Origin: a virus
Lineage: Duplodnaviria > Heunggongvirae > Uroviricota > Caudoviricetes
Virus record (IMG/VR): IMGVR_UViG_2671180710_000005
Direction: 5' to 3' (one strand)
DNA length: 8,159 nt
A program made the position numbers and the translations under genes. A model generated the notes under the pieces. The model saw nothing but the letters and a program-made list of their open reading frames with translations. It did not search any database and was not told the DNA's origin. Positions 1,282 to 7,913 of this stretch are shown in pieces (within the stretch, counting starts at the first letter, position 1; each line of letters begins with the position of its first letter).

Positions 1282-2808
1282 TCAAAAATAAACCTCACCA
1301 TCAACCATATATTTGAGAGCACTTATCGCCTGCTGGGCGGATATTACTTTCATTAAAGGATAGTGTTTAAAAACAATGCCATTCATAAAATAGATATCAC
1401 AGCTTTTATTATCCGTATTAATTATGATTTTTTCGAATGTTTTATAGGCAAGTGTACGGCATAACTCTCGTCCATTTTTACTGGTTAAGTCAATAGCATA
1501 AAAATCACTGAATGAATTTACACCTTTACTCTTCAAAGTTTTCAATGATACCGAAGCCCTTCTTAATTCCTTATCTAATAGTCTTATTTTCTCTGCTATA
1601 GCGGTAACTTCAGGCGCGACAGACAATGCAACGATTAAATTATTAATTTTCATCTGAAGCTCAATAATTTTTAACTCTAAAGTTTCATTAGCATCTTTCT
1701 TGTTTTCAACTGGTTGAATTTTGCTACAATTAAAAAGCAATTCATTAATGATATTATAATCAACCAAATCTCTTTTTATTGATGGCCTGTCACATCGATG
1801 TAATCTTCTCATCGGACAAACATAATAGCCATGCAAACTTCCAGATACCGCATGAACAATCATGGTATTACCACAAGCCTCACACTTCATAACTGTTCGA
1901 AGTAGATTTATTAGCATAGGATTCTTGCTACTATTGCTAATACCAAAAGGTGCCAACCGAATTTCCTGTACAGCGTAAAACAAATCATCTGATATGACTC
2001 TGGGATAATAGCCAGCGATTTCACTTATCCCTTTCCCTCTTGCACGATATGAAGGTACGCATATACCTATCAGAGCTTTATTCGCTAATAATTTTTCAAT
2101 TACAGAAGGTCCCCATGCACTTTCTTTTCCTGAGAAATTCTTTACAGCATGATCATTTAAATACTTGGCTATTGCATTCAATGAGCGCCTTTCCATCCTG
2201 AGTTTAAAAATTAGCTCAATAGTTTTCACCCTGTCGGGGTCTGGAACAAAAGCCGTTCTTTTGTCATCTAAGGAGAGCCATCTCGGACAAGACGCCGTCA
2301 TAATCGTACCTGATTCCAGTGCATCCTGCCGTTTTTTCTTCCATGATAATTTAACCCGACTTGACTTTATCTCGCTTTCTTCATTTGCCCTTTGTGCTAT
2401 AAGTATGGCTTTTATTAATGAATATGGCTCATTCAAAGAGTCAATATTATAGACTGTATTGTCGCAAAGAGTTATAACATCAATACCGTGATTCAAAATT
2501 AATTTCAGACGTTCAATCGCTTCACCGACTTTTTCTCTTGAAAGTCTGTCCAGACTTTCAACTAACAATGTAGTTCCTGGCAATATATAACCATGCTCTA
2601 TAGCATCTAAAAATTCCGAAAAAGCTCCTGATTGTGCATGCTTTCCTTTGAATGCACTTAATCCTAAATCTTCATATGTTATGGTATCAAGATAATAATC
2701 ACTATTTACCTTTAACCATTCAGCAATAAGTCTTCTCTGTCGGTTTAATGAGTCACCAGACATCTGACCTGGTGATGAAAATCGCATATATGCTATGGCT
2801 TTTTTCAT
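1282..2808 (-). CDS. ybcK: Large serine recombinase (resolvase/invertase catalytic domain plus zinc-ribbon and coiled-coil C-terminal region), 508 aa
   Basis: N-terminal AIAYMRFSSPGQ matches the serine-recombinase catalytic motif (resolvase-like xxGYxRVSTxxQ). The C-terminal part has a cysteine cluster (CEACGN...YYVCP...HRCD) typical of the large-serine-recombinase zinc ribbon. Length and position next to emrE match E. coli DLP12 ybcK as I recall it. AT-rich codon usage. Confidence 0.85.
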   Translation of the reverse strand: MKKAIAYMRFSSPGQMSGDSLNRQRRLIAEWLKVNSDYYLDTITYEDLGLSAFKGKHAQSGAFSEFLDAIEHGYILPGTTLLVESLDRLSREKVGEAIERLKLILNHGIDVITLCDNTVYNIDSLNEPYSLIKAILIAQRANEESEIKSSRVKLSWKKKRQDALESGTIMTASCPRWLSLDDKRTAFVPDPDRVKTIELIFKLRMERRSLNAIAKYLNDHAVKNFSGKESAWGPSVIEKLLANKALIGICVPSYRARGKGISEIAGYYPRVISDDLFYAVQEIRLAPFGISNSSKNPMLINLLRTVMKCEACGNTMIVHAVSGSLHGYYVCPMRRLHRCDRPSIKRDLVDYNIINELLFNCSKIQPVENKKDANETLELKIIELQMKINNLIVALSVAPEVTAIAEKIRLLDKELRRASVSLKTLKSKGVNSFSDFYAIDLTSKNGRELCRTLAYKTFEKIIINTDNKSCDIYFMNGIVFKHYPLMKVISAQQAISALKYMVDGEVYF

Positions 2809-2993
2809 GGTGACACCTGCTAACGTATGCTTTTATAAACCTTAGTGGTGGGATATAATTTTTGTTTAATTTTTATTTAAAAAAACAATTAAGGTCACAT
2901 TATCTTGAATATACAACAATAATCGTATTGCAATTTTCTTACGCCATAATCTTGAAAGCACAAAAGAACACATAAAAAAATAAAGACATTAAC

Positions 2994-3033
2994 AAAAAGC
3001 ATAAAACGAGGCTCATATAAATATAAGAGCCTC
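2994..3033 (-). terminator. Putative intrinsic terminator downstream of emrE
   Basis: 7-bp stem GAGGCTC/GAGCCTC (3008-3014 and 3027-3033) with a 12-nt AT loop. On the minus strand it is followed by a T-rich tract (GTTTTATGCTTTTT), about 30 nt after the emrE stop. Confidence 0.45.
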
Positions 3034-3064
3034 CATATTTTAGTCGTTTAGAAACAAATTATTT

Positions 3065-3397
3065 TTAATGTGGTGTGCTTCGTGACAATAGATTAATAAC
3101 CAACACACCGGCACAAATCAACATCATGCCTATAATGGCTGGCAGGTCCAGCCGTTGGCCGAAAAGTCCCCATGACAGTAAGCTAATCAGGACAATACCG
3201 ACTCCTGACCAGATAGCATAAGCAATCCCTGTAGGAATATAAGCCAGCGTCTGAGCTAATAACCAGAATGATGCACAATAACAAATAATTGTACCAACAG
3301 ATGGCCATAACCGTGTAAAACCTTCTGAAAACTTCATTAAGGTTGTACCAATGACCTCTGCAAGTATTGCACCACCAAGATAAATATAAGGGTTCAT
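3065..3397 (-). CDS. emrE: EmrE, small multidrug resistance (SMR) family efflux transporter, 110 aa
   Basis: Translation MNPYIYLGGAILAEVIGTTLMKFSEGFTRLWPSVGTIICYCASFWLLAQTLAYIPTGIAYAIWSGVGIVLISLLSWG... is near-identical to E. coli EmrE as recalled. The track ORF starts 18 codons earlier; I place the start at the MNPYIY methionine (ATG 3397-3395). Confidence 0.9.
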   Translation of the reverse strand: MNPYIYLGGAILAEVIGTTLMKFSEGFTRLWPSVGTIICYCASFWLLAQTLAYIPTGIAYAIWSGVGIVLISLLSWGLFGQRLDLPAIIGMMLICAGVLVINLLSRSTPH

Positions 3398-3464
3398 AGC
3401 ATATTCTTTCCTGTTCAAACTGGAGAGAATTGTACTACAGTTTGAACTCAACTCACCTGTTTCA

Positions 3465-3767
3465 TCATTGTGTACCCATTGATGTTCTTTTATATACCCT
3501 CAATACCCGTTTCATCGCGGCACTCTGGCGACACTCCTTAAAAATCAGATTCGTGCTCACCTTTCCTTCCCGTTCTTCTCTGGTAGCGAACCGGTAATAC
3601 ACCGTTCGCCAGACCTTACCATCAACGACCAGGATTCCTGCCCGCGCCATTTTAGCCGCAGCCTGATTTATGCTGGTTACGGTTGCGCCTGTTACCGCGG
3701 CAACGTCCTGTGCACAGAAGCTCTTATGCGTCCCCAGGTAATGAATAATTGCCTCTTTGCCCGTCAT
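3465..3767 (-). CDS. ren: Ren-like protein (lambda ren homolog), 100 aa
   Basis: MTGKEAIIHYLGTH..FCA.DVAA.TGATVTSINQAAAKMARAG...GKVWRTVYYRFATREEREGK closely matches lambda Ren as recalled. Its start codon overlaps the P stop (ATGA). Confidence 0.85.
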   Translation of the reverse strand: MTGKEAIIHYLGTHKSFCAQDVAAVTGATVTSINQAAAKMARAGILVVDGKVWRTVYYRFATREEREGKVSTNLIFKECRQSAAMKRVLRVYKRTSMGTQ

Positions 3768-4465
3768 ACACTTGCTCCTTTCAGTCCGAACTTAGCTTTA
3801 ATTTCTGCGATCTTCGCCAGAGCCTGTGCACGATTTAGAGGTCTACCGCCCATAACAGGAAGTTGTTTTACTGGTTCAGGTATCGTCTCACCACGGTTAA
3901 TTCGCGCTGTCATACAGGTCAGTTCATCGGCAGCCTTGCGCCGTAATTCCGCGTCAGTCAGCGCATTGGCCCGCATGTTCTGGTACAAGTTGGTAACCAA
4001 CCAGTAATGCGCGTTCGATTTCCACGGATAAGACTCTGCATCCGGATACAGGCCACGCTTCCGGCAATACTCGTAAACCATATCAACCAGCTCGCTGACG
4101 TTTGGCAGCCCGGCGTTAACAGATGCTTCTTCCCGGCACCAGGCGACAAACTGCCCGGGTGATGGCAGGAATGGTCGATTCTGCCGACGGGCTACGCGCA
4201 TTCCAGCGTTAACCTGTTCCATTGTGGTGATCCCGTTTTCCCGGAAAGCCAGAACCCACTGGCGGCGGATTTCGTTCAGTTCATTCTGGTCACGGTTAGC
4301 CAGGCTCGCCGGGAAAGTTGCCAGTAACTGGCTGAACACACCGTTGATGATCTGCGCTACCTGCTGTACCTGTGGCTTTTCGTCGTACTGTTCCGGCATG
4401 TTGTTGGCGATCCGGCGCATCTGCTCACAGTCAAAGTTAACCATCTGTGCGGCGATGTTTTTCAT
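3764..4465 (-). CDS. P: Lambda-type replication protein P (DnaB helicase loader), 233 aa
   Basis: MKNIAAQMVNFD.EQMRRIANNMPEQYDEKPQVQQVAQIINGVFSQLLATFPASLANRDQNE... is near-identical to lambda P along its length as recalled. Its start overlaps the O stop (ATGA at 4462-4465). Confidence 0.9.
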   Translation of the reverse strand: MKNIAAQMVNFDCEQMRRIANNMPEQYDEKPQVQQVAQIINGVFSQLLATFPASLANRDQNELNEIRRQWVLAFRENGITTMEQVNAGMRVARRQNRPFLPSPGQFVAWCREEASVNAGLPNVSELVDMVYEYCRKRGLYPDAESYPWKSNAHYWLVTNLYQNMRANALTDAELRRKAADELTCMTARINRGETIPEPVKQLPVMGGRPLNRAQALAKIAEIKAKFGLKGASV

Positions 4466-5391
4466 AGCTCCACCCCGTAAATCCAGTCAGTGTTCGTCAG
4501 GTCGAGTTTTGGTTTGCCGGCTGTCACGCCAGCCTGTTGCTTGTTTCGGTTGATTTCGAGCTGGGTCCACTTGTCGCGGAGTTTGGCCGGACTTAGCACG
4601 TTACCGGACCAGAAGTTGTCCTGGCATGCCCAGCGGAACAGCACGCACATGTCGCGGTGGTTACGTCCGTCACGTTCACGCATCAGGCGGATATCGTTAG
4701 CCCACCCTGCAAAATTCGGTTTTCTGGCTGATGGCGCGATGGTCTTCACCATGTCAAACATCCACTCTGCGGCGGTCAGGTCTTCTGCTGTCCCCCACTT
4801 GCTGCCGCTCTGAATTGCAGCATCCGGTTTCACCACAGGAAGATCGTTTTCTGGTTGGTCAGAGGATTCGCCAGAATTCTCGGACGAAAAAGGTTTTATA
4901 TTGTCTTTTGTTAGTTTGTCTTTTGTGTTTACCTGATTCGGGTAAACGCCTTTACCTGATTTGGGTAAACTTTTTTTACCTGATTCAGGTAAATTTACCT
5001 CTTTCAGGTAAACTTTATTTTTCTTACCTGATTCGGGTAATGTTGACCATTCACTGACCACATTATTAATGCCGGTATTCCGCCCGCTCTGAATAAAAAT
5101 CCCACGCTTTACCAGAACACTTTTTGCAGCAGAACACTTGTGCGGCAATATCCCGGTTAATTCGGAAAGTTGCTCGTTGCTAACCCAATCCAGTTTTTTA
5201 TTAAAGCCATATGTTTTGCGCATGACAGCCAGAAAGACCAGAAGCTGGTGCTGTGTTAATCCGGCCAGCATCACAGCTTCCAGCAACTCATTTGCAATGC
5301 GCGTATAACCATCATCGAGATCTGCCACGCGCGGCTCCTTTTGTGCCGCATCCGGCACTGGAAAATTGAATATCTCAGCAGTGTTTGCCAT
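4462..5391 (-). CDS. O: Lambda-type replication initiator O, about 309 aa
   Basis: The C-terminal ~120 aa (EWMFDMVKTIAPSARKPNFAGWANDIRLMRERDGRNHRDMCVLFRWACQDNFWSGNVLSPAKLRDKWTQLEINRNKQQAGVTA.KPKLDLTNTDWIYGV) matches lambda O; the N-terminal domain is O-like but diverged. Start placed at MANTAEIFNF (ATG 5391-5389), which aligns with the lambda O N-terminus and has a GGGAGG SD. The track ORF extends 30 codons further to 5481. Confidence 0.88.
   Translation of the reverse strand: MANTAEIFNFPVPDAAQKEPRVADLDDGYTRIANELLEAVMLAGLTQHQLLVFLAVMRKTYGFNKKLDWVSNEQLSELTGILPHKCSAAKSVLVKRGIFIQSGRNTGINNVVSEWSTLPESGKKNKVYLKEVNLPESGKKSLPKSGKGVYPNQVNTKDKLTKDNIKPFSSENSGESSDQPENDLPVVKPDAAIQSGSKWGTAEDLTAAEWMFDMVKTIAPSARKPNFAGWANDIRLMRERDGRNHRDMCVLFRWACQDNFWSGNVLSPAKLRDKWTQLEINRNKQQAGVTAGKPKLDLTNTDWIYGVEL
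4929..5042. repeat. Origin of replication iterons (ori-lambda type) inside the O gene, with adjacent AT-rich region
   Basis: Five roughly 19-bp palindromic iterons of the form TTACCTGATTCGGGTAAAC start at 4929, 4952, 4976, 4995 and 5024. An AT-rich stretch lies at about 4885-4928, downstream in the O reading direction, as in the lambda ori. Confidence 0.8.
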
Positions 5392-5477
5392 AATTCCTCC
5401 CGCAATGAGTGTGTTACGATTTGCACCTGAAAGTCGGTTCTGTTCCAGCAGACCGGCTTTCGCCATTTCTGAACCTG

Positions 5478-6017
5478 TCATATCGCCCCCAGCATGGTAG
5501 TAACCATCGCCATCAATGGACCAGCCAGATCTGGGTCCACACGAAACATCGACACAATACCTTCACTAATTTCCTTCAGTTTCTGGTGGCGTGGTGCGTT
5601 GAGAATGACAGCCTGTTTTGCCTCACTGAGTTCCTTTTCCATTTCAGCCAACCTAGCCATGAAGCTATCCTGCTCAACCAGGTAACCGCGATATTCCAGC
5701 GGTAGTACCGCCAGAATTGCCGGGGTCAGTTCACGCACGTTATTTCGGTATTTTTCAGAATCGAATTTGTTATCGAGGAAGCGGAACAGCTTCTGGCGTG
5801 CACGGCTGACATCATCAGGGAAATCGATGGTGCCGCCGCCCTGCTCCCGATACTCATTCACAATGAGTGTGGCAACGACATCCTGATTATCTACAGCCGA
5901 CCAGGCGCGGACGGCATCACGGATTTTTTCGTGGCCTGGCACCTGTTTTGTTTGAGAACGATTTATCACCGCAGTCGGGCTAAATCCGCTAGTCTGTTGG
6001 TATGTAAGTGGTTGCAT
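5478..6017 (-). CDS. 179-aa protein in the cII position; possibly YdaT-family (CII functional analogue of Rac/CP-933P-type prophages)
   Basis: Sits between cro and O where lambda has cII, but is about twice the size of lambda CII and unlike it. Segments EYREQGGG and LTPAILAVLPLEYR resemble what I recall of YdaT; this is unverified. Strong SD (AAAGGAG) upstream of ATG 6017-6015. Confidence 0.6.
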   Translation of the reverse strand: MQPLTYQQTSGFSPTAVINRSQTKQVPGHEKIRDAVRAWSAVDNQDVVATLIVNEYREQGGGTIDFPDDVSRARQKLFRFLDNKFDSEKYRNNVRELTPAILAVLPLEYRGYLVEQDSFMARLAEMEKELSEAKQAVILNAPRHQKLKEISEGIVSMFRVDPDLAGPLMAMVTTMLGAI

Positions 6018-6065
6018 AATTGACTCCTTTAGTTTGAATTGACTGTTAAGTTGATTGCTTATTGT

Positions 6066-6074
6066 TAAAGAGCG
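6066..6074 (-). promoter_or_regulatory. boxA-like antitermination motif (CGCTCTTTA, continuing AACAA) in the pR transcript downstream of cro
   Basis: Minus-strand CGCTCTTTAACAATAAGCAATCA matches the boxA consensus CGCTCTT(T)A and resembles rrn boxA (GCTCTTTAACAA). No clear boxB hairpin follows. Confidence 0.35.
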
Positions 6075-6086
6075 TGAAATGGAAAT

Positions 6087-6317
6087 TTAAGCTGCGTTCT
6101 TTTCGGTGTGTGGAAACAACTTCGGAAGATCCGGGCGAATCTGGTATGCCTTCACTACTCCACCAGTAGCCGTAACAATGCTGCCGACATGTTCAGGGGA
6201 TACCTTTGCTTTGTTGTGAAGCCACTTATAGACGGCCTGCTGTGAAACTTCGCAAGCAGCGCCCAGTTTCTTTTGTGAACCAACGATATTGATCGCTGTT
6301 TTGATAGCTGGGTTCAT
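6087..6317 (-). CDS. cro: Cro-like HTH repressor (P22 Cro / YdaS-like), 76 aa
   Basis: A 76-aa protein divergent from cI across the operator region. Its pattern (GSQKKLGAACEVSQQAVYKWL...VTATGG) parallels the P22 Cro HTH. GGAGG SD 5 nt upstream of ATG 6317-6315. Confidence 0.75.
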   Translation of the reverse strand: MNPAIKTAINIVGSQKKLGAACEVSQQAVYKWLHNKAKVSPEHVGSIVTATGGVVKAYQIRPDLPKLFPHTEKNAA

Positions 6318-6330
6318 AACAACCTCCGTG

Positions 6331-6421
6331 GTTAATTTGAATCAAGATTAAAACTATGGTTGTTTTTAGTTAACAACCATTTTCGTTTGATGAAATAAAA
6401 CCTTGGTTGTACATTTGGACT
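6331..6421. promoter_or_regulatory. OR region: operators with divergent pR (toward cro) and pRM (toward cI)
   Basis: 25-bp palindrome ATGGTTGTT-N7-AACAACCAT at 6356-6380 and a further GGTTGT half-site at about 6401-6413. Candidate pR on the minus strand: -35 TTGTTA, -10 TTTAAT. Candidate pRM on the plus strand: -35 TTGATG (6387-6392), -10 TACATT (6410-6415), placing the start near the cI ATG (leaderless, as in lambda). Confidence 0.6.
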
Positions 6422-7111
6422 ATGAAAACAACACTCTCAGAAAGACTTAAAGAAGCCAGATTAGCGCGAGGCCTTACACAAAAGGCGCTTGGGGATTTGG
6501 TCGGGGTTAGCCAGGCTGCTATTCAGAAAATCGAAACAGGGAAAGCTAATCAAACAACTAAAATCGTGGAGATCGCGAACGCTTTGGGTGTGCGCGCAGA
6601 ATGGTTATCTTCTGGCGTTGGAAATATGTCAGACAGTACAGTGCAACCAATACAATCAACTGTCAGCCATTCCAAATACTTCAAGATTGACGTTCTTGAT
6701 ATAGAAGTCAGTGCTGGGCCGGGAGTCATCAACCGTGAGTTTGTAGAAGTTCTACGCTCGGTTGAGTACTCGTTTGACGATGCTCGTCACATGTTCGATG
6801 GTAGGAAGGCGGAAAATATCCGCATCATTAACGTGCGTGGTGACAGCATGTCAGGAACGATCGAACCAGGTGATCTGCTGTTCGTTGATATCACAGTTAA
6901 ATCTTTCGACGGTGATGGTATCTATGCGTTTCTGTACGACGACACAGCCCATGTAAAGCGCCTGCAAATGATGAAGGATAAGCTGCTGGTCATCTCTGAT
7001 AACAAAAGCTACTCACCGTGGGACCCGATCGAGAAAGACGAGATGAACCGGGTGTTCATCTTCGGTAAGGTTATTGGGAGCATGCCGCAGACATATAGGA
7101 AGCATGGGTAG
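6422..7111 (+). CDS. cI: CI-type phage repressor (N-terminal XRE-family HTH, C-terminal S24/LexA-like autopeptidase domain), about 229 aa
   Basis: The N-terminus (LSERLKEARLARGLTQKALGDLVGVSQAAIQKIETGK) is a classic HTH. An Ala-Gly cleavage site (EVSAGPG), a Ser in RGDSMSGTI and a Lys in HVKRLQ match the LexA/CI autocleavage module. Start set at ATG 6422; the track ORF begins at an upstream TTG at 6407. Confidence 0.9.
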   Translation: MKTTLSERLKEARLARGLTQKALGDLVGVSQAAIQKIETGKANQTTKIVEIANALGVRAEWLSSGVGNMSDSTVQPIQSTVSHSKYFKIDVLDIEVSAGPGVINREFVEVLRSVEYSFDDARHMFDGRKAENIRIINVRGDSMSGTIEPGDLLFVDITVKSFDGDGIYAFLYDDTAHVKRLQMMKDKLLVISDNKSYSPWDPIEKDEMNRVFIFGKVIGSMPQTYRKHG

Positions 7112-7232
7112 TACCAATTAAAAATTATCAACTGGGCATTGTGCTCATTCAGTAAAGAACTAATTCCTATCTTTGCTCTAGGTAGTAATATTAAGCCACC
7201 GCAATAATATCTTTACCTAACGGCGTAAGAAT

Positions 7233-7259
7233 CCCGGTCACCGTGCCGGGTTTTCTTTT
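7233..7259 (+). terminator. Putative intrinsic terminator downstream of cI
   Basis: GC-rich hairpin CCCGG-tcaccgtg-CCGGG (7233-7250) followed by TTTTCTTTT. Confidence 0.6.
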
Positions 7260-7369
7260 GCCCTCCCCTCATCACACACACCGTTAAAAAAACCACCATA
7301 ACCTCGCTTCAGTTATCGCTATGCGATTCAAGTCACAAAATAAATCCATCCTAAATACAACCAGTTATA

Positions 7370-7430
7370 TCTAAAACAACCAATAAAACAACTTTTGTTG
7401 TTGACGATAAAACAACTATAGTTTTAAATA
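7370..7430 (+). promoter_or_regulatory. OL operators and pL-like promoter
   Basis: Palindromes AACAACTTTTGTTGTT (7387-7402) and AAAACAACTATAGTTTT (7409-7425) share the GTTGTT/AACAAC half-site with OR. -35 TTGACG (7401-7406), 17-bp spacer, -10 TTAAAT (7424-7429), directed toward the early-left genes. Confidence 0.5.
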
Positions 7431-7706
7431 AGTTCATCGCAACAACACAACGATACGGCAACTACCTGATTCACCGTTGCGATGACCGCTTAGATCCGCA
7501 GTTTGAATTTCAGCAGGCTTCGGGGAGTGCGAGGGGTGAAACGGACGCGTGAACGTCGGTGTGACCAGCTGAAATTAACTCAACATTTCATACCTTAGTC
7601 GCTTCAACGAGGCGGCTTAGTTATGACAACCGGCGGCCATCCACCGCCTGAATACGCGCAGAAGTCTCTATATGTTCAGCAGCCCAGCTTACGGGCAGGA
7701 GTTTTT

Positions 7707-7913
7707 ATGGTTCATCAACATTATGGAACGCAGACCGTTAATCGAGGTGCGGTCATGCCAGGAATGCTGGTCAAACACAAAGATGGTACCTGGACTGCAT
7801 CAGCTAATTTACGCGGACGGCTTTATCTGCATCGCGGCATCGAGCGCACTTATACCCGTGATTTGCTCGTGGAAGTTTTTCTCGACGGACGCGGTAACGG
7901 CCTGAATCACTAA
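7707..7913 (+). CDS. Hypothetical small protein (68 aa from ATG 7707; the track ORF extends to 7623) in the pL operon
   Basis: AGGAG SD 5 nt upstream of ATG 7707. Codon usage is ordinary. No arginine-rich motif, so it is not an N-like antiterminator; no family recognised. The overlapping alternative frame 7672-7905 lacks an SD. Confidence 0.4.

Follow-up and report, generated by a model that had tools for sequence, protein, structure and literature searches.

The window, by which we mean the whole stretch of 8,159 nt analysed here from the Caudoviricetes record IMGVR_UViG_2671180710_000005, carries an immunity region with the gene order cI (S24 repressor), OR, cro-like (YdaS family), cII, M3/oop-like RNA, O and P (Table 1). 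The cro-like gene and the gene of 179 aa that follows it lie on the minus strand, opposite to the S24 repressor and ahead of lambda-type O and P genes. The region corresponds to the rightward early arm of an immunity switch, that of a lambdoid prophage of the DLP12 family at argU, and the prophage surroundings include a tRNA-Arg site with intD, bet/exo, ren, emrE and ybcK. An earlier note on this DNA, made from the sequence alone, had read a lysis-lysogeny switch here, and the lambdoid layout bears this out; the two ORFs that it described, a cro-like gene and then a 179-aa gene, are real genes according to Pfam, PHROG and RefSeq, which annotates both CDSs with equal coordinates in a 99.9% identical prophage (WP_001182903.1 and WP_001067458.1). 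A cIII gene is not apparent anywhere in the window.

Table 1. Features of the immunity region, with positions numbered from the first nucleotide of the window
Feature	Position	Strand	Basis
Lambda-type replication initiator O (from its more likely start)	4462-5391	-	Pfam, PHROG, NCBIfam
Promoter-like site of the M3/oop-like RNA	5366-5394	+	Sigma-70-like scan, conservation
oop/M3-like antisense small RNA	5402-5470	+	Alignment, hairpin, compensatory changes
cII, phi80-type long-form YdaT-family regulator, 179 aa	5478-6017	-	Pfam, PHROG, AF2, Foldseek
YdaT-box-like imperfect palindrome, predicted CII binding site	5952-5969		Conservation, core spacing
Predicted -10 (TAGTCT) of a CII-dependent pRE-like promoter	5990-5995	+	Spacing conservation
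cro-cII spacer, 69 nt, AT-rich	6018-6086		Sequence
cro-like gene, YdaS family, 76 aa, ATG start	6087-6317	-	Pfam YdaS_toxin
OR-like divergent control region, cI/cro	6318-6421		Repeat search
CI-like prophage repressor, HTH_3 and Peptidase_S24	6422-7111	+	Pfam, PHROG, RefSeq

The repressor matches Pfam Peptidase_S24 (1.3e-18) and HTH_3 (5.6e-13) as well as PHROG 4, a transcriptional repressor (5e-73), and RefSeq names the CDS at the equivalent position 'S24 family peptidase', starting it at ATG 6422; the program-made ORF list gives TTG 6407. In the control region between the repressor and the cro-like gene, a repeat search found the repeated operator-like motifs TAAAACAAC/GTTGTTTTA, together with a 9+9 palindrome, ATGGTTGTT-N7-AACAACCAT, at 6356-6380. 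The operator-like motif is found again at about 7372-7426, in an OL/pL-like region, among the k-mers common to 6310-6430 and 7320-7450.

The 76-aa product of the cro-like gene, a small all-α HTH protein, belongs to the YdaS/Cro group, with a score above threshold for Pfam YdaS_toxin (PF15943; E 4.1e-17, 62.2 bits, cutoff 30) and an orientation divergent from the repressor. The P22_Cro profile scored 22.8 bits (8e-5), under its cutoff of 30.2 bits, and membership of P22 Cro is therefore not claimed; the earlier description of a P22/YdaS-like Cro is supported as regards YdaS. The nearest solved relative is the 'Cro protein' of PDB 3bd1 (E 7e-4), and identity to HK639 cro reaches 63%. In the spacer that separates this gene from cII, the plus strand reads the hexamer TTGAYT three times, at 6020, 6039 and 6051. 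These direct repeats were the first candidate for a lambda-style CII site and were dropped as a family site because the spacer, confined to the present phage group, is absent or unrelated in phi80, mEp237, HK225, HK639 and Klebsiella phages.

Downstream of cII, the O protein is recognized by Pfam Phage_rep_O (1.1e-33), and its gene contains five iterons of about 18 bp at 4924-5040. RefSeq and the ORF list place the start of O at 5481, where it overlaps the cII stop codon as ATGA; a start at ATG 5391, behind a GGAGG, is more likely. The 339-aa O ORF aligns with PHROG 277 from residue 31 onwards, NCBIfam phage_O_Nterm matches the 309-aa version, and phi80 and mEp237 have intergenic DNA where the extra 5′ end would lie. 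Between the cII stop and this probable start lies the M3/oop-like RNA, which aligns with the annotated M3 RNA of phi80 and the M3-like RNA of HK639 and ends in a terminator-type hairpin (5429-5461; dG -24.1 kcal/mol, z -2.4), with compensatory changes in 10 of its 13 stem pairs across 24 sequences. Such an RNA occurs just downstream of cII at 46 of 53 hit loci, a count that leaves out L001, the near-identical copy of the window. Its promoter-like site, the sole sigma-70-like return in a scan of 5300-6500, consists of TTGAAT, 17 nt and CATAAT with an upstream TG; the -10 element overlaps the complement of ATG 5391, and the CATAAT/CATACT element is kept in relatives. A search of the whole window against Rfam, with E up to 1, returned only a spurious rliD match on the O iterons (15.9 bits, gathering score 50); neither the M3/oop-like RNA nor any put-like element has a family there.

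The 179-aa gene starts at ATG 6017, with the Shine-Dalgarno sequence AGGAG (complement of 6024-6028) 6 nt upstream. Its product is a phi80-type CII, the presumptive lysogeny regulator of a very common Escherichia coli prophage, and is already known. It matches PHROG 163, 'CII-like transcriptional activator', over residues 17-179 of the protein (E 3.9e-67, 168-position profile), and in tblastn it is 100% identical to the 'cII' of the isolated phage PhiR34_1, 66% identical to phi80 cII over the full length of 179 aa, 67% to mEp237 and 52% to HK225/HK639. It occurs in about 40% of complete E. coli genomes and is labelled 'cII' in isolated phages (PhiR34_1 and Turner are of this immunity type), and the exact sequence heads clusters with thousands of members. 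The earlier note's assignment to the YdaT family is confirmed because the Pfam score lies above threshold (PF06254, YdaT_toxin; E 8.5e-30, 103.5 bits, cutoff 21, residues 67-154), the fold matches 8BT1 and 3C4R, and the arginine of the recognition helix is conserved. This residue, R79, is invariant in alignments and pairs with Arg60 of CP-933P YdaT and R57 of Rac YdaT, both required for DNA binding (PMC9986795, PMC11879457). Alignment with the CP-933P and Rac proteins gave this pairing at identities of 26-31% overall and 34% over 83 aa, and because this similarity is low, the DNA specificity of the protein could differ. The gene position is likewise that of ydaT, right behind a cro/YdaS-type gene, with a divergent repressor and with replication genes downstream, and the same order is found in phi80, mEp237, HK225 and HK639 and at 9 short-form loci. 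Among the NCBIfam models there is none for the protein. Placement in the lambda CII family was considered and rejected, the Pfam scan (E up to 0.01) giving PF06254 only, and the tie to lambda CII is one of functional analogy only. What the earlier note had missed is that this is the long-known phi80-type CII, whose homology to YdaT has already been stated in print (PMC8630535).

The protein is also, as had been pointed out, longer than YdaT, with 179 aa against 140 aa in Rac and 141 aa in CP-933P, an excess of about 38 aa. The length is normal for the subfamily, since all 67 homologous genes in Enterobacteriaceae encode 177-187 aa, and this rules out the frameshift fusion that had been raised as the alternative. 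In an AF2 model with a mean pLDDT of 84, residues 1-25 fall below 50 and are predicted to be disordered, residues 29-112 form a POU-like helix-turn-helix (HTH) domain of five helices (29-43, 45-58, 70-82, 88-104 and 107-112), and the C-terminal part consists of helices 119-138, 143-159 and 162-178. The recognition helix is 70-82, with R79. YdaT tetramers are held together by an antiparallel four-helix bundle of α6. An α6-equivalent helix exists in the monomer model, split at APRH (139-142) into 119-138 and 143-159; the C-terminal helices presumably form an oligomerization region that would build a tetramer. The C-terminus of the terminal helix 162-178 is non-polar and, if this helix is exposed, might, as a speculation, act as a signal for FtsH or a tail-specific protease. 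Foldseek against the PDB gave confident matches to 8bt1 and 3c4r only, with a probability of 1.0 and a target-normalized TM of 0.67-0.69. The excess thus comprises a disordered N-terminal extension of 24 aa, a helical segment of about 16 aa that most family members keep and Rac and CP-933P lack, and a single C-terminal helix of 17 aa, and the extra domain suspected earlier did not materialize. The N-terminal part appears instead to reflect an ORF start shifted upstream over a promoter, with no functional domain: the DNA of the extension probably doubles as the target promoter of CII itself.

Within cII codons 17-22, the plus strand reads TTGAGA-ACGATT-TATCAC, an imperfect palindrome with a TGA-N10-TCA core at 5953-5968. 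The half-sites are degenerate, agreeing with the consensus TTGATT-N6-AATCAA at 8 of 12 positions, and the core spacing equals that of the footprinted CP-933P and Rac boxes (PMC9986795, PMC11879457). An in-register TGA-N10-TCA is present in 43 of 45 non-redundant long-form genes, and exactly 24 nt past the T of TCA all 45 have TAnnnT, the element proposed as the -10 of a promoter whose transcript would run against cII and cro in the direction of cI. The codons themselves carry the signal. Apart from the ATG start and a Trp codon, the only third positions in the whole gene that are invariant (at least 95%) are those of codons 9, 17 and 21. That of codon 9 (sense T27) corresponds to the A at -11 within the -10 element, and those of codons 17 and 21 fall on the two arms of the palindrome. 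The third bases of codon 17 (G) and codon 21 (T) are the same in 45/45 genes despite amino-acid variation, with seven kinds of amino acid at codon 9 and seven at codon 21. Ile18 is encoded by the rare ATA in 41/45 genes, against 12% elsewhere in the gene, and two further rare codons are fixed near the box and the -10 (CTT in 37/45 and CAA in 34/45, each about 12% elsewhere). Third-position entropy across codons 2-22 did not fall significantly below that of the remaining codons (Mann-Whitney p = 0.15); the constraint at the 5′ end of cII is position-specific, not global.

The box and the -10 were partly spotted through the same long-form conservation that is cited for them, and the long-form statistics are to this extent not fully independent. 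The independent check on the geometry is the set of 11 short-form ydaT loci, in each of which the box sits at the start codon and TAnnnT follows, 24 nt further on in 9 loci and 25 nt in 2. The predicted start of the pRE-like transcript would fall at about 6002, placing the centre of the box at -41.5, the geometry of a class-II activator. The hexamer at the -35 position, TCACCG (5966-5971), is poor and the -10 TAGTCT is weak. Because a consensus promoter scan of 5300-6500 called none of the proposed pRE, pR and pRM, all three are assigned only through visual inspection and comparison; the hexamers of pR and pRM in the control region were picked out by eye. A promoter using the window-specific CATAAT at 6015-6020 was rejected, its -35 spacing being unusable and the element not conserved, as were readings of the conserved string as an IHF site or a DnaA box, for which the matches were poor by eye.

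In both CP-933P (PMC8630535) and Rac (PMC11879457), YdaT is known to switch on a reverse promoter that points to the repressor gene. The YdaT-responsive CP-933P reporter fragment begins just 5′ of the box and includes the proposed -10 at this spacing, TACAAT; in Rac, a TATGAT hexamer lies next to the box. Taken as a whole, the locus is probably explained by a phi80-type CII that establishes lysogeny by activating a leftward pRE analogue inside its own gene; the CII role itself rests on homology to phi80 CII and to the YdaT of Rac and CP-933P and on gene position. After infection, the 179-aa protein would most likely act as the activator of lysogeny establishment, binding the inverted repeat through its TGA-N10-TCA core and turning on the leftward promoter, whose transcript would pass antisense through cro into cI. 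In the long form, the predicted box and -10 would both lie within the first 22 codons of cII. The DNA-level constraint on the extension is possibly a new point, and it suggests that long-form cII genes carry a CII-activated class-II pRE within the ORF.

For the family at large, we lean slightly towards a reading in which the YdaT-box is the upstream half of a compact class-II promoter, centred at -41.5/-42.5, with the TAnnnT -10 sitting 24-25 nt past the proximal TCA, and in which the long-form promoter is overprinted by cII. The start codon of long-form cII would have moved about 50 nt upstream, and the whole promoter would therefore be overprinted by 24 codons, leaving the conserved N-terminal peptide largely a by-product of constraint on the promoter and operator sequence. 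The family-wide layout conflicts with the published descriptions, in which the YdaT-dependent Rac promoter, PracR4, lies about 190 bp from the box and the CP-933P box lies 'downstream' of PRE933P.

Binding at the box might act mainly as a repressor or roadblock, shutting off rightward transcription from pR or translation of cII-O-P and favouring lysogeny through blocked replication rather than activation of cI, with a contribution from weaker flanking sites. The box does sit ahead of O and P within the unit transcribed from pR; CP-933P YdaT has been termed a 'CII repressor', with a footprint of about 95 bp that includes sites at the start codon (PMC9986795), and the ydaS promoter region is a further target of Rac YdaT. 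We nevertheless judge this unlikely, since the reverse promoter was activated in the reporter assays of both systems (in Rac 29-fold and box-dependent) and since a pure roadblock does not explain why the antisense TAnnnT keeps a fixed spacing in 56/56 loci. Roadblock and activation are not mutually exclusive. The N-terminal 24 residues could also be selected as a peptide, for instance as a protease degron or a contact for RNA polymerase, with nucleotide conservation following from protein selection and 5′ translational constraints. Synonymous change is reduced in the 5′ codons of many genes, and the protein motifs MxSLxYQQ and (M/L/V)INRxQ recur, with Ile18 invariant. A peptide module is nonetheless quite improbable: the pLDDT of the segment is low, the best-conserved nucleotides stand in columns without amino-acid conservation and in otherwise rare codons, and the short forms function without the extension and have equal DNA elements just outside their ORF.

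The names in Pfam and RefSeq ('Bacterial toxin YdaT/YdaS') and the reported toxicity of ectopically expressed Rac ydaS/ydaT (discussed in PMC5917428) suggest a toxin-antitoxin or toxin-repressor pair in which the 179-aa protein inhibits growth. Neither its sequence nor its structure, as searched with Foldseek, gave any hint of a toxin fold, and the modelled fold is a DNA-binding HTH domain with an oligomerization helix. The gene stands where cII is expected in a complete immunity region, as it does in plaque-forming phages; CP-933P YdaT is non-toxic and activates a promoter (PMC8630535), and lambda CII, which is no toxin, is likewise toxic when overexpressed (PMC5917428). A toxin is on these grounds highly improbable. 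Least probable of all is an annotation artefact, in which the true start lies downstream or the ORF arose by a frameshift. The 1988 phi80 record, X13065, does give cII as 132 aa, but that start is rejected because it would cost the DNA-binding domain, which runs from residue 29, the whole of helix 1 and some of helix 2, and the later phi80 genome record gives 180 aa. ATG 6017 is preceded by a strong Shine-Dalgarno sequence, no conserved internal start lies near residues 25-29, and the upstream frame is open in the 67 genes, with indels in frame.

The identity of the regulator, listed as phi80 cII or as 'toxin YdaT domain-containing protein', is not new, and its re-identification matters little. 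For thousands of RefSeq entries, the misleading 'toxin' label can be taken to mean 'CII-like lysogeny regulator', and the gap between 140 and 180 aa is accounted for without a new domain. The conserved geometry of box and -10 amounts to a precise prediction of where the establishment promoter lies in a large group of phages, and the predicted pRE would be a clean case of a promoter that lies within, and constrains, the gene of the activator on which it depends.

The closest relatives of the system are the CII proteins of phi80 (JX871397, 180 aa), mEp237, HK225 and HK639, which resemble the 179-aa protein in length and position and share its N-terminal extension and C-terminal PLMxMVTSMLG tail. 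The phi80 locus runs in parallel, as cro-like, cII, M3 RNA, gene 15 (O) and gene 14 (P). The immunity specificity of the window is unlike that of phi80, with unrelated CI, Cro and operators; the replication modules differ (lambda-type O/P against gene 15/14), and phi80 has a cro-cII spacer of 30 nt with a GC hairpin in place of the longer, AT-rich one.

The YdaT proteins of CP-933P (8BT1) and Rac (related structure 3C4R) share Pfam family and fold with the 179-aa protein, a five-helix POU-like HTH that leads into a long helix, and have in common with it the recognition-helix motif QK(L/I)FR(F/W)LD with its essential arginine. Their genes, like cII of the window, stand behind a YdaS-type cro and have a TGA-N10-TCA repeat at the 5′ end, with a -10-like hexamer 24-25 nt past it. 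Identity is just 26-34%, the α2-α3 loop is about 5 residues shorter in the 179-aa protein, and the helical segment of about 16 residues and the terminal helix are missing from the other two. Because of the 24 extra N-terminal residues, the box lies inside the ORF and not on the start codon as in Rac and CP-933P.

Lambda CII, of 97 aa, occupies the same map slot and has the same inferred job, without sequence or Pfam relationship; its target is the direct repeat TTGC-N6-TTGC, in contrast to the inverted repeat predicted here. Part of lambda pRE falls inside the lambda cII gene, from where transcription runs antisense across cro to cI (PMC8630535). Like lambda oop and phi80 M3, the predicted antisense RNA of the window is short, at roughly 65-70 nt, with a promoter-like site overlapping the O start codon and a hairpin just past cII; with a predicted end at about 5470, it appears to stop before reaching the cII stop codon (5478-5480), as in phi80, whereas lambda oop overlaps the 3′ end of cII.

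The 179-aa product of the gene in the cII position, which follows a 76-aa cro-like gene, is a member of the YdaT family. The earlier note had recognized these two ORFs, which RefSeq carries at identical coordinates, and its tentative YdaT assignment holds, since profile matches, fold, a key residue and gene position all point the same way. The protein matches Pfam YdaT_toxin (PF06254) with E 8.5e-30 and, over residues 17-179, PHROG 163 'CII-like transcriptional activator' with E 3.9e-67. Matches to solved YdaT structures are weak but specific at the sequence level (8bt1, E 0.002; 3c4r, E 0.004), and in a pairwise BLASTP comparison, 83 aa align with CP-933P YdaT at 34% identity. With an AlphaFold2 model built on an alignment of 33 sequences (mean pLDDT 84), the only confident Foldseek matches in the PDB are the same two structures (probability 1.0, target-normalised TM 0.67-0.69, 26-27% identity over ~120 columns), all others having E >2. 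R79, aligned to the Arg found essential in both experimental YdaT papers, is invariant. Among phage genomes, the protein is 100% identical to the annotated cII product of the isolated phage PhiR34_1, 95-99% identical to those of other isolated coliphages, 67% to that of mEp237, 66% to phi80 cII across all 179 residues, and 52% to those of HK225 and HK639. The order in the phi80 record is that of the window: cro-like gene 30, cII (180 aa), M3 RNA and genes 15/14 (O-/P-like).

Features of the immunity and replication region, with predicted regulatory sites
Feature	Position	Strand	Remarks
P	3764-4465	minus	after O; followed by ren, emrE and the serine recombinase gene ybcK
lambda-type O	down to 4462	minus	after cII
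five ~18-bp iterons (TTACCTGATTCGGGTAA)	4924-5040		inside O gene
promoter-like site TTGAAT-17-CATAAT	5366-5394	plus	overlaps O start codon
predicted oop/M3-like antisense small RNA	5402-5470	plus	between cII and O; ends in hairpin
cII ORF, 179 aa	5478-6017	minus	YdaT family
predicted YdaT-box-like element, TTGAGA-ACGATT-TATCAC	5952-5969	plus (as read)	
poor -35 position TCACCG	5966-5971	plus	
predicted -10 TAGTCT	5990-5995	plus	
inferred transcription start	~6002	plus	
cro-cII spacer, 69 nt	6018-6086		between the two minus-strand ORFs
cro-like ORF, 76 aa	6087-6317	minus	YdaS family
repressor, HTH + Peptidase_S24	6422-7111	plus	divergent from the 76-aa gene

The length of the protein is not anomalous. 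Two length classes exist among 1.84 billion cluster representatives, a long form of ~170-190 aa, aligned from residue 1, and a short form, 135-163 aa in length, in which residue 5 corresponds to residue 29 of the window protein. The protein is indeed longer than CP-933P and Rac YdaT, as the earlier note had said with ~140 aa for YdaT, but it is not unusually long: the 67 homologous genes collected from phages and from Enterobacteriaceae, the latter sampled at one genome per species, all encode 177-187 aa, a constancy that also excludes a fusion created by a frameshift. The earlier reading was thus right in substance, while its idea of an extra domain is unsupported, the excess consisting of an N-terminus predicted to be disordered, the SEAKQAVILNAPRHQKL segment and a terminal helix. 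None of the four length differences from CP-933P/Rac YdaT qualifies as a domain. The window protein has 24 additional N-terminal residues (residues 1-25 are predicted to be disordered, with pLDDT <50 in the AlphaFold2 model), an alpha2-alpha3 loop ~5 residues shorter, and a ~16-residue segment (SEAKQAVILNAPRHQKL) by which its long helix is divided into 119-138 and 143-159. Because this segment also occurs in other short-form members and lies mostly inside the Pfam model, it reflects a loss in Rac and CP-933P rather than a gain here. The fourth difference is a final 17-residue helix (162-178, PDLxGPLMxMVTSMLG), restricted to the long form. A 132-aa cII start, from the 1988 phi80 entry, would leave the DNA-binding domain without helix 1 and has been superseded by the later phi80 genome record.

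The C-terminal stretch at residues 162-179 (5478-5525), PDLxGPLMxMVTSMLG-xx, is a conserved, strongly non-polar helix that short forms lack. The C-terminus of lambda CII is protease-sensitive and, by speculative analogy, this helix could be a stability determinant of long-form CII; no cIII-like gene was seen in the window.

The first codons of cII carry a constraint at the DNA level. When 45 long-form genes, made non-redundant at <90% nucleotide identity, are aligned by codon, the identity of synonymous codons reaches 0.7-1.0 in most of codons 2-12 and at codons 16, 18 and 21, against ~0.45 over the remaining codons. If the ATG start and the single Trp codon are set aside, codons 9, 17 and 21 are the only ones in the whole gene with an invariant third base, and there the residue itself is not conserved (7, 3 and 7 amino acids, respectively). 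Ile18 is encoded by the rare ATA in 41/45 genes, Leu4 by CTT in 37/45 and Gln7 by CAA in 34/45, each of these codons making up 12% of the codons for its amino acid elsewhere in the gene. On the window's plus strand, antisense to cII, the conserved bases read TGA-N10-TCA in 43 of the 45 genes, with TAnnnT 24 nt past it in all 45. The N10 spacing within TGA-N10-TCA is exactly that of the footprinted YdaT boxes of CP-933P (TTGATT-N6-AATCAA) and Rac (ATGATT-N6-AATCAA), and in the window the box centre lies at -41.5 relative to the inferred start.

The same geometry is found in the short form, sampled as Rac, CP-933P and nine other diverse ydaT loci. In 11/11, the ydaT start codon lies at the centre of TGA-N10-TCA, antisense TAnnnT is placed 24 nt (nine loci) or 25 nt (two) past the T of TCA, and the box centre falls at -41.5/-42.5 in every locus; the sequence between box and TAnnnT shows no conservation across the 11. 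Rac has TATGAT as its -10-like hexamer and CP-933P has TACAAT; the latter lies within the published YdaT-responsive CP-933P reporter fragment, whose ends are immediately 5′ of the box and ~85 nt past it. From the box and TAnnnT spacing conserved in both forms, we infer a compact class-II promoter arrangement for the YdaT/CII family, and the sequences suggest that the YdaT-dependent promoter adjoins the box. Long-form cII would begin at a start codon ~50 nt further upstream, placing the promoter within the ORF, which would explain the 'extra' N-terminal length. The transcript of this putative pRE, the CII-activated promoter, would run antisense across the cII start and via cro into cI.

The cro-cII spacer, confined to this phage group, reads on the plus strand TTGACT at 6020 and 6039 and TTGATT at 6051, and contains two copies of AATTGACT at a distance of exactly 19 nt; at 6051-6068, TTGATT-GCTTAT-TGTTAA agrees with the YdaT-box at 9/12 positions. 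One possibility is that CII also binds here, at secondary sites lying 3′ of the predicted pRE start; the repeats may also have another role.

Between cII and O, several observations together argue for a predicted oop/M3-like antisense RNA gene in the window. The promoter-like site is the sole sigma-70-like site from a scan of 5300-6500; the hairpin at 5429-5461 (dG -24.1 kcal/mol, z -2.4) shows compensatory changes at 10/13 stem pairs among 24 sequences; the stretch aligns with the annotated M3 RNA of phi80, labelled 'homolog of lambda oop' in that record, and with the M3-like RNA of HK639; and the element lies directly 3′ of cII in 46/53 matching loci, a count that leaves out a near-identical copy of the window. 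No Rfam family matched this RNA. The only Rfam match in the window, Listeria rliD, lies on the O iterons and is spurious (15.9 bits, gathering score 50). These iterons presumably mark the replication origin. RefSeq and the ORF list start O at ATG 5481, overlapping the cII stop (5478), but the start is most likely ATG 5391 (minus), which is preceded by a GGAGG Shine-Dalgarno and is where profile alignments begin; in phi80 and mEp237, the counterpart of the 90 nt upstream is intergenic. The 339-aa O of the annotation probably has 30 residues too many.

The 76-aa protein had been read as P22/YdaS-like, of which the YdaS half stands (62 bits, cutoff 30); the score against P22_Cro is under threshold. 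Its closest solved structure is 3bd1, a Cro protein, and HK639 cro is 63% identical. The cI-cro region shares TAAAACAAC/GTTGTTTTA operator-like motifs with ~7372-7426, within a pL/OL-like region (~7372-7430, plus; TTGACG-17-TTAAAT) whose TAAAACAAC repeats also occur in OR; beyond it come ~270 nt of untranslated, GC-rich DNA. From the end of cI to kil (7111-7707, plus; the RefSeq start of kil corresponds to 7707) there is no ORF for an N-like antiterminator. Put-like RNA-mediated antitermination of the HK022/HK639 type is a possibility in 7111-7707, where Rfam gave no match.

A 99.9% identical copy is a prophage with intD beside tRNA-Arg, exo/bet/gam/kil, the immunity region and emrE-ybcK, a gene order that identifies an intact relative of DLP12. 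As in the K-12 DLP12 remnant, emrE and the large serine recombinase gene ybcK (1282-3451) come right after ren; it is precisely the immunity and replication segment that is missing from DLP12 in K-12. The mechanical ORF of emrE, an SMR multidrug efflux gene, is longer (3065-3451) than the RefSeq CDS.

The 179-aa gene is a well-known and extremely common regulator, a 1-kb query over the cII/cro locus matching 2224/5426 complete E. coli genomes at >=95% identity. For CP-933P YdaT, homology with phi80 CII and activation of a pRE-like promoter have been described (Jurenas et al. 2021, PMC8630535), its structure has been solved and its TTGATT-N6-AATCAA operator footprinted (Prolic-Kalinsek et al. 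2023, PMC9986795), structure and operator work has likewise been done on Rac YdaT (2025 NAR paper, PMC11879457), and the 'toxin' label is disputed (Jobling 2018, PMC5917428). What is added here is a testable proposal: the activator would target a promoter formed by the 5′ part of its own coding sequence, and the geometry of box and -10 would be shared by the whole family. Such a box-adjacent promoter is at odds with the published placements, in which the Rac promoter PracR4 lies ~190 bp from the YdaT-box (PMC11879457) and the CP-933P box is described as 'downstream' of PRE933P (PMC9986795).
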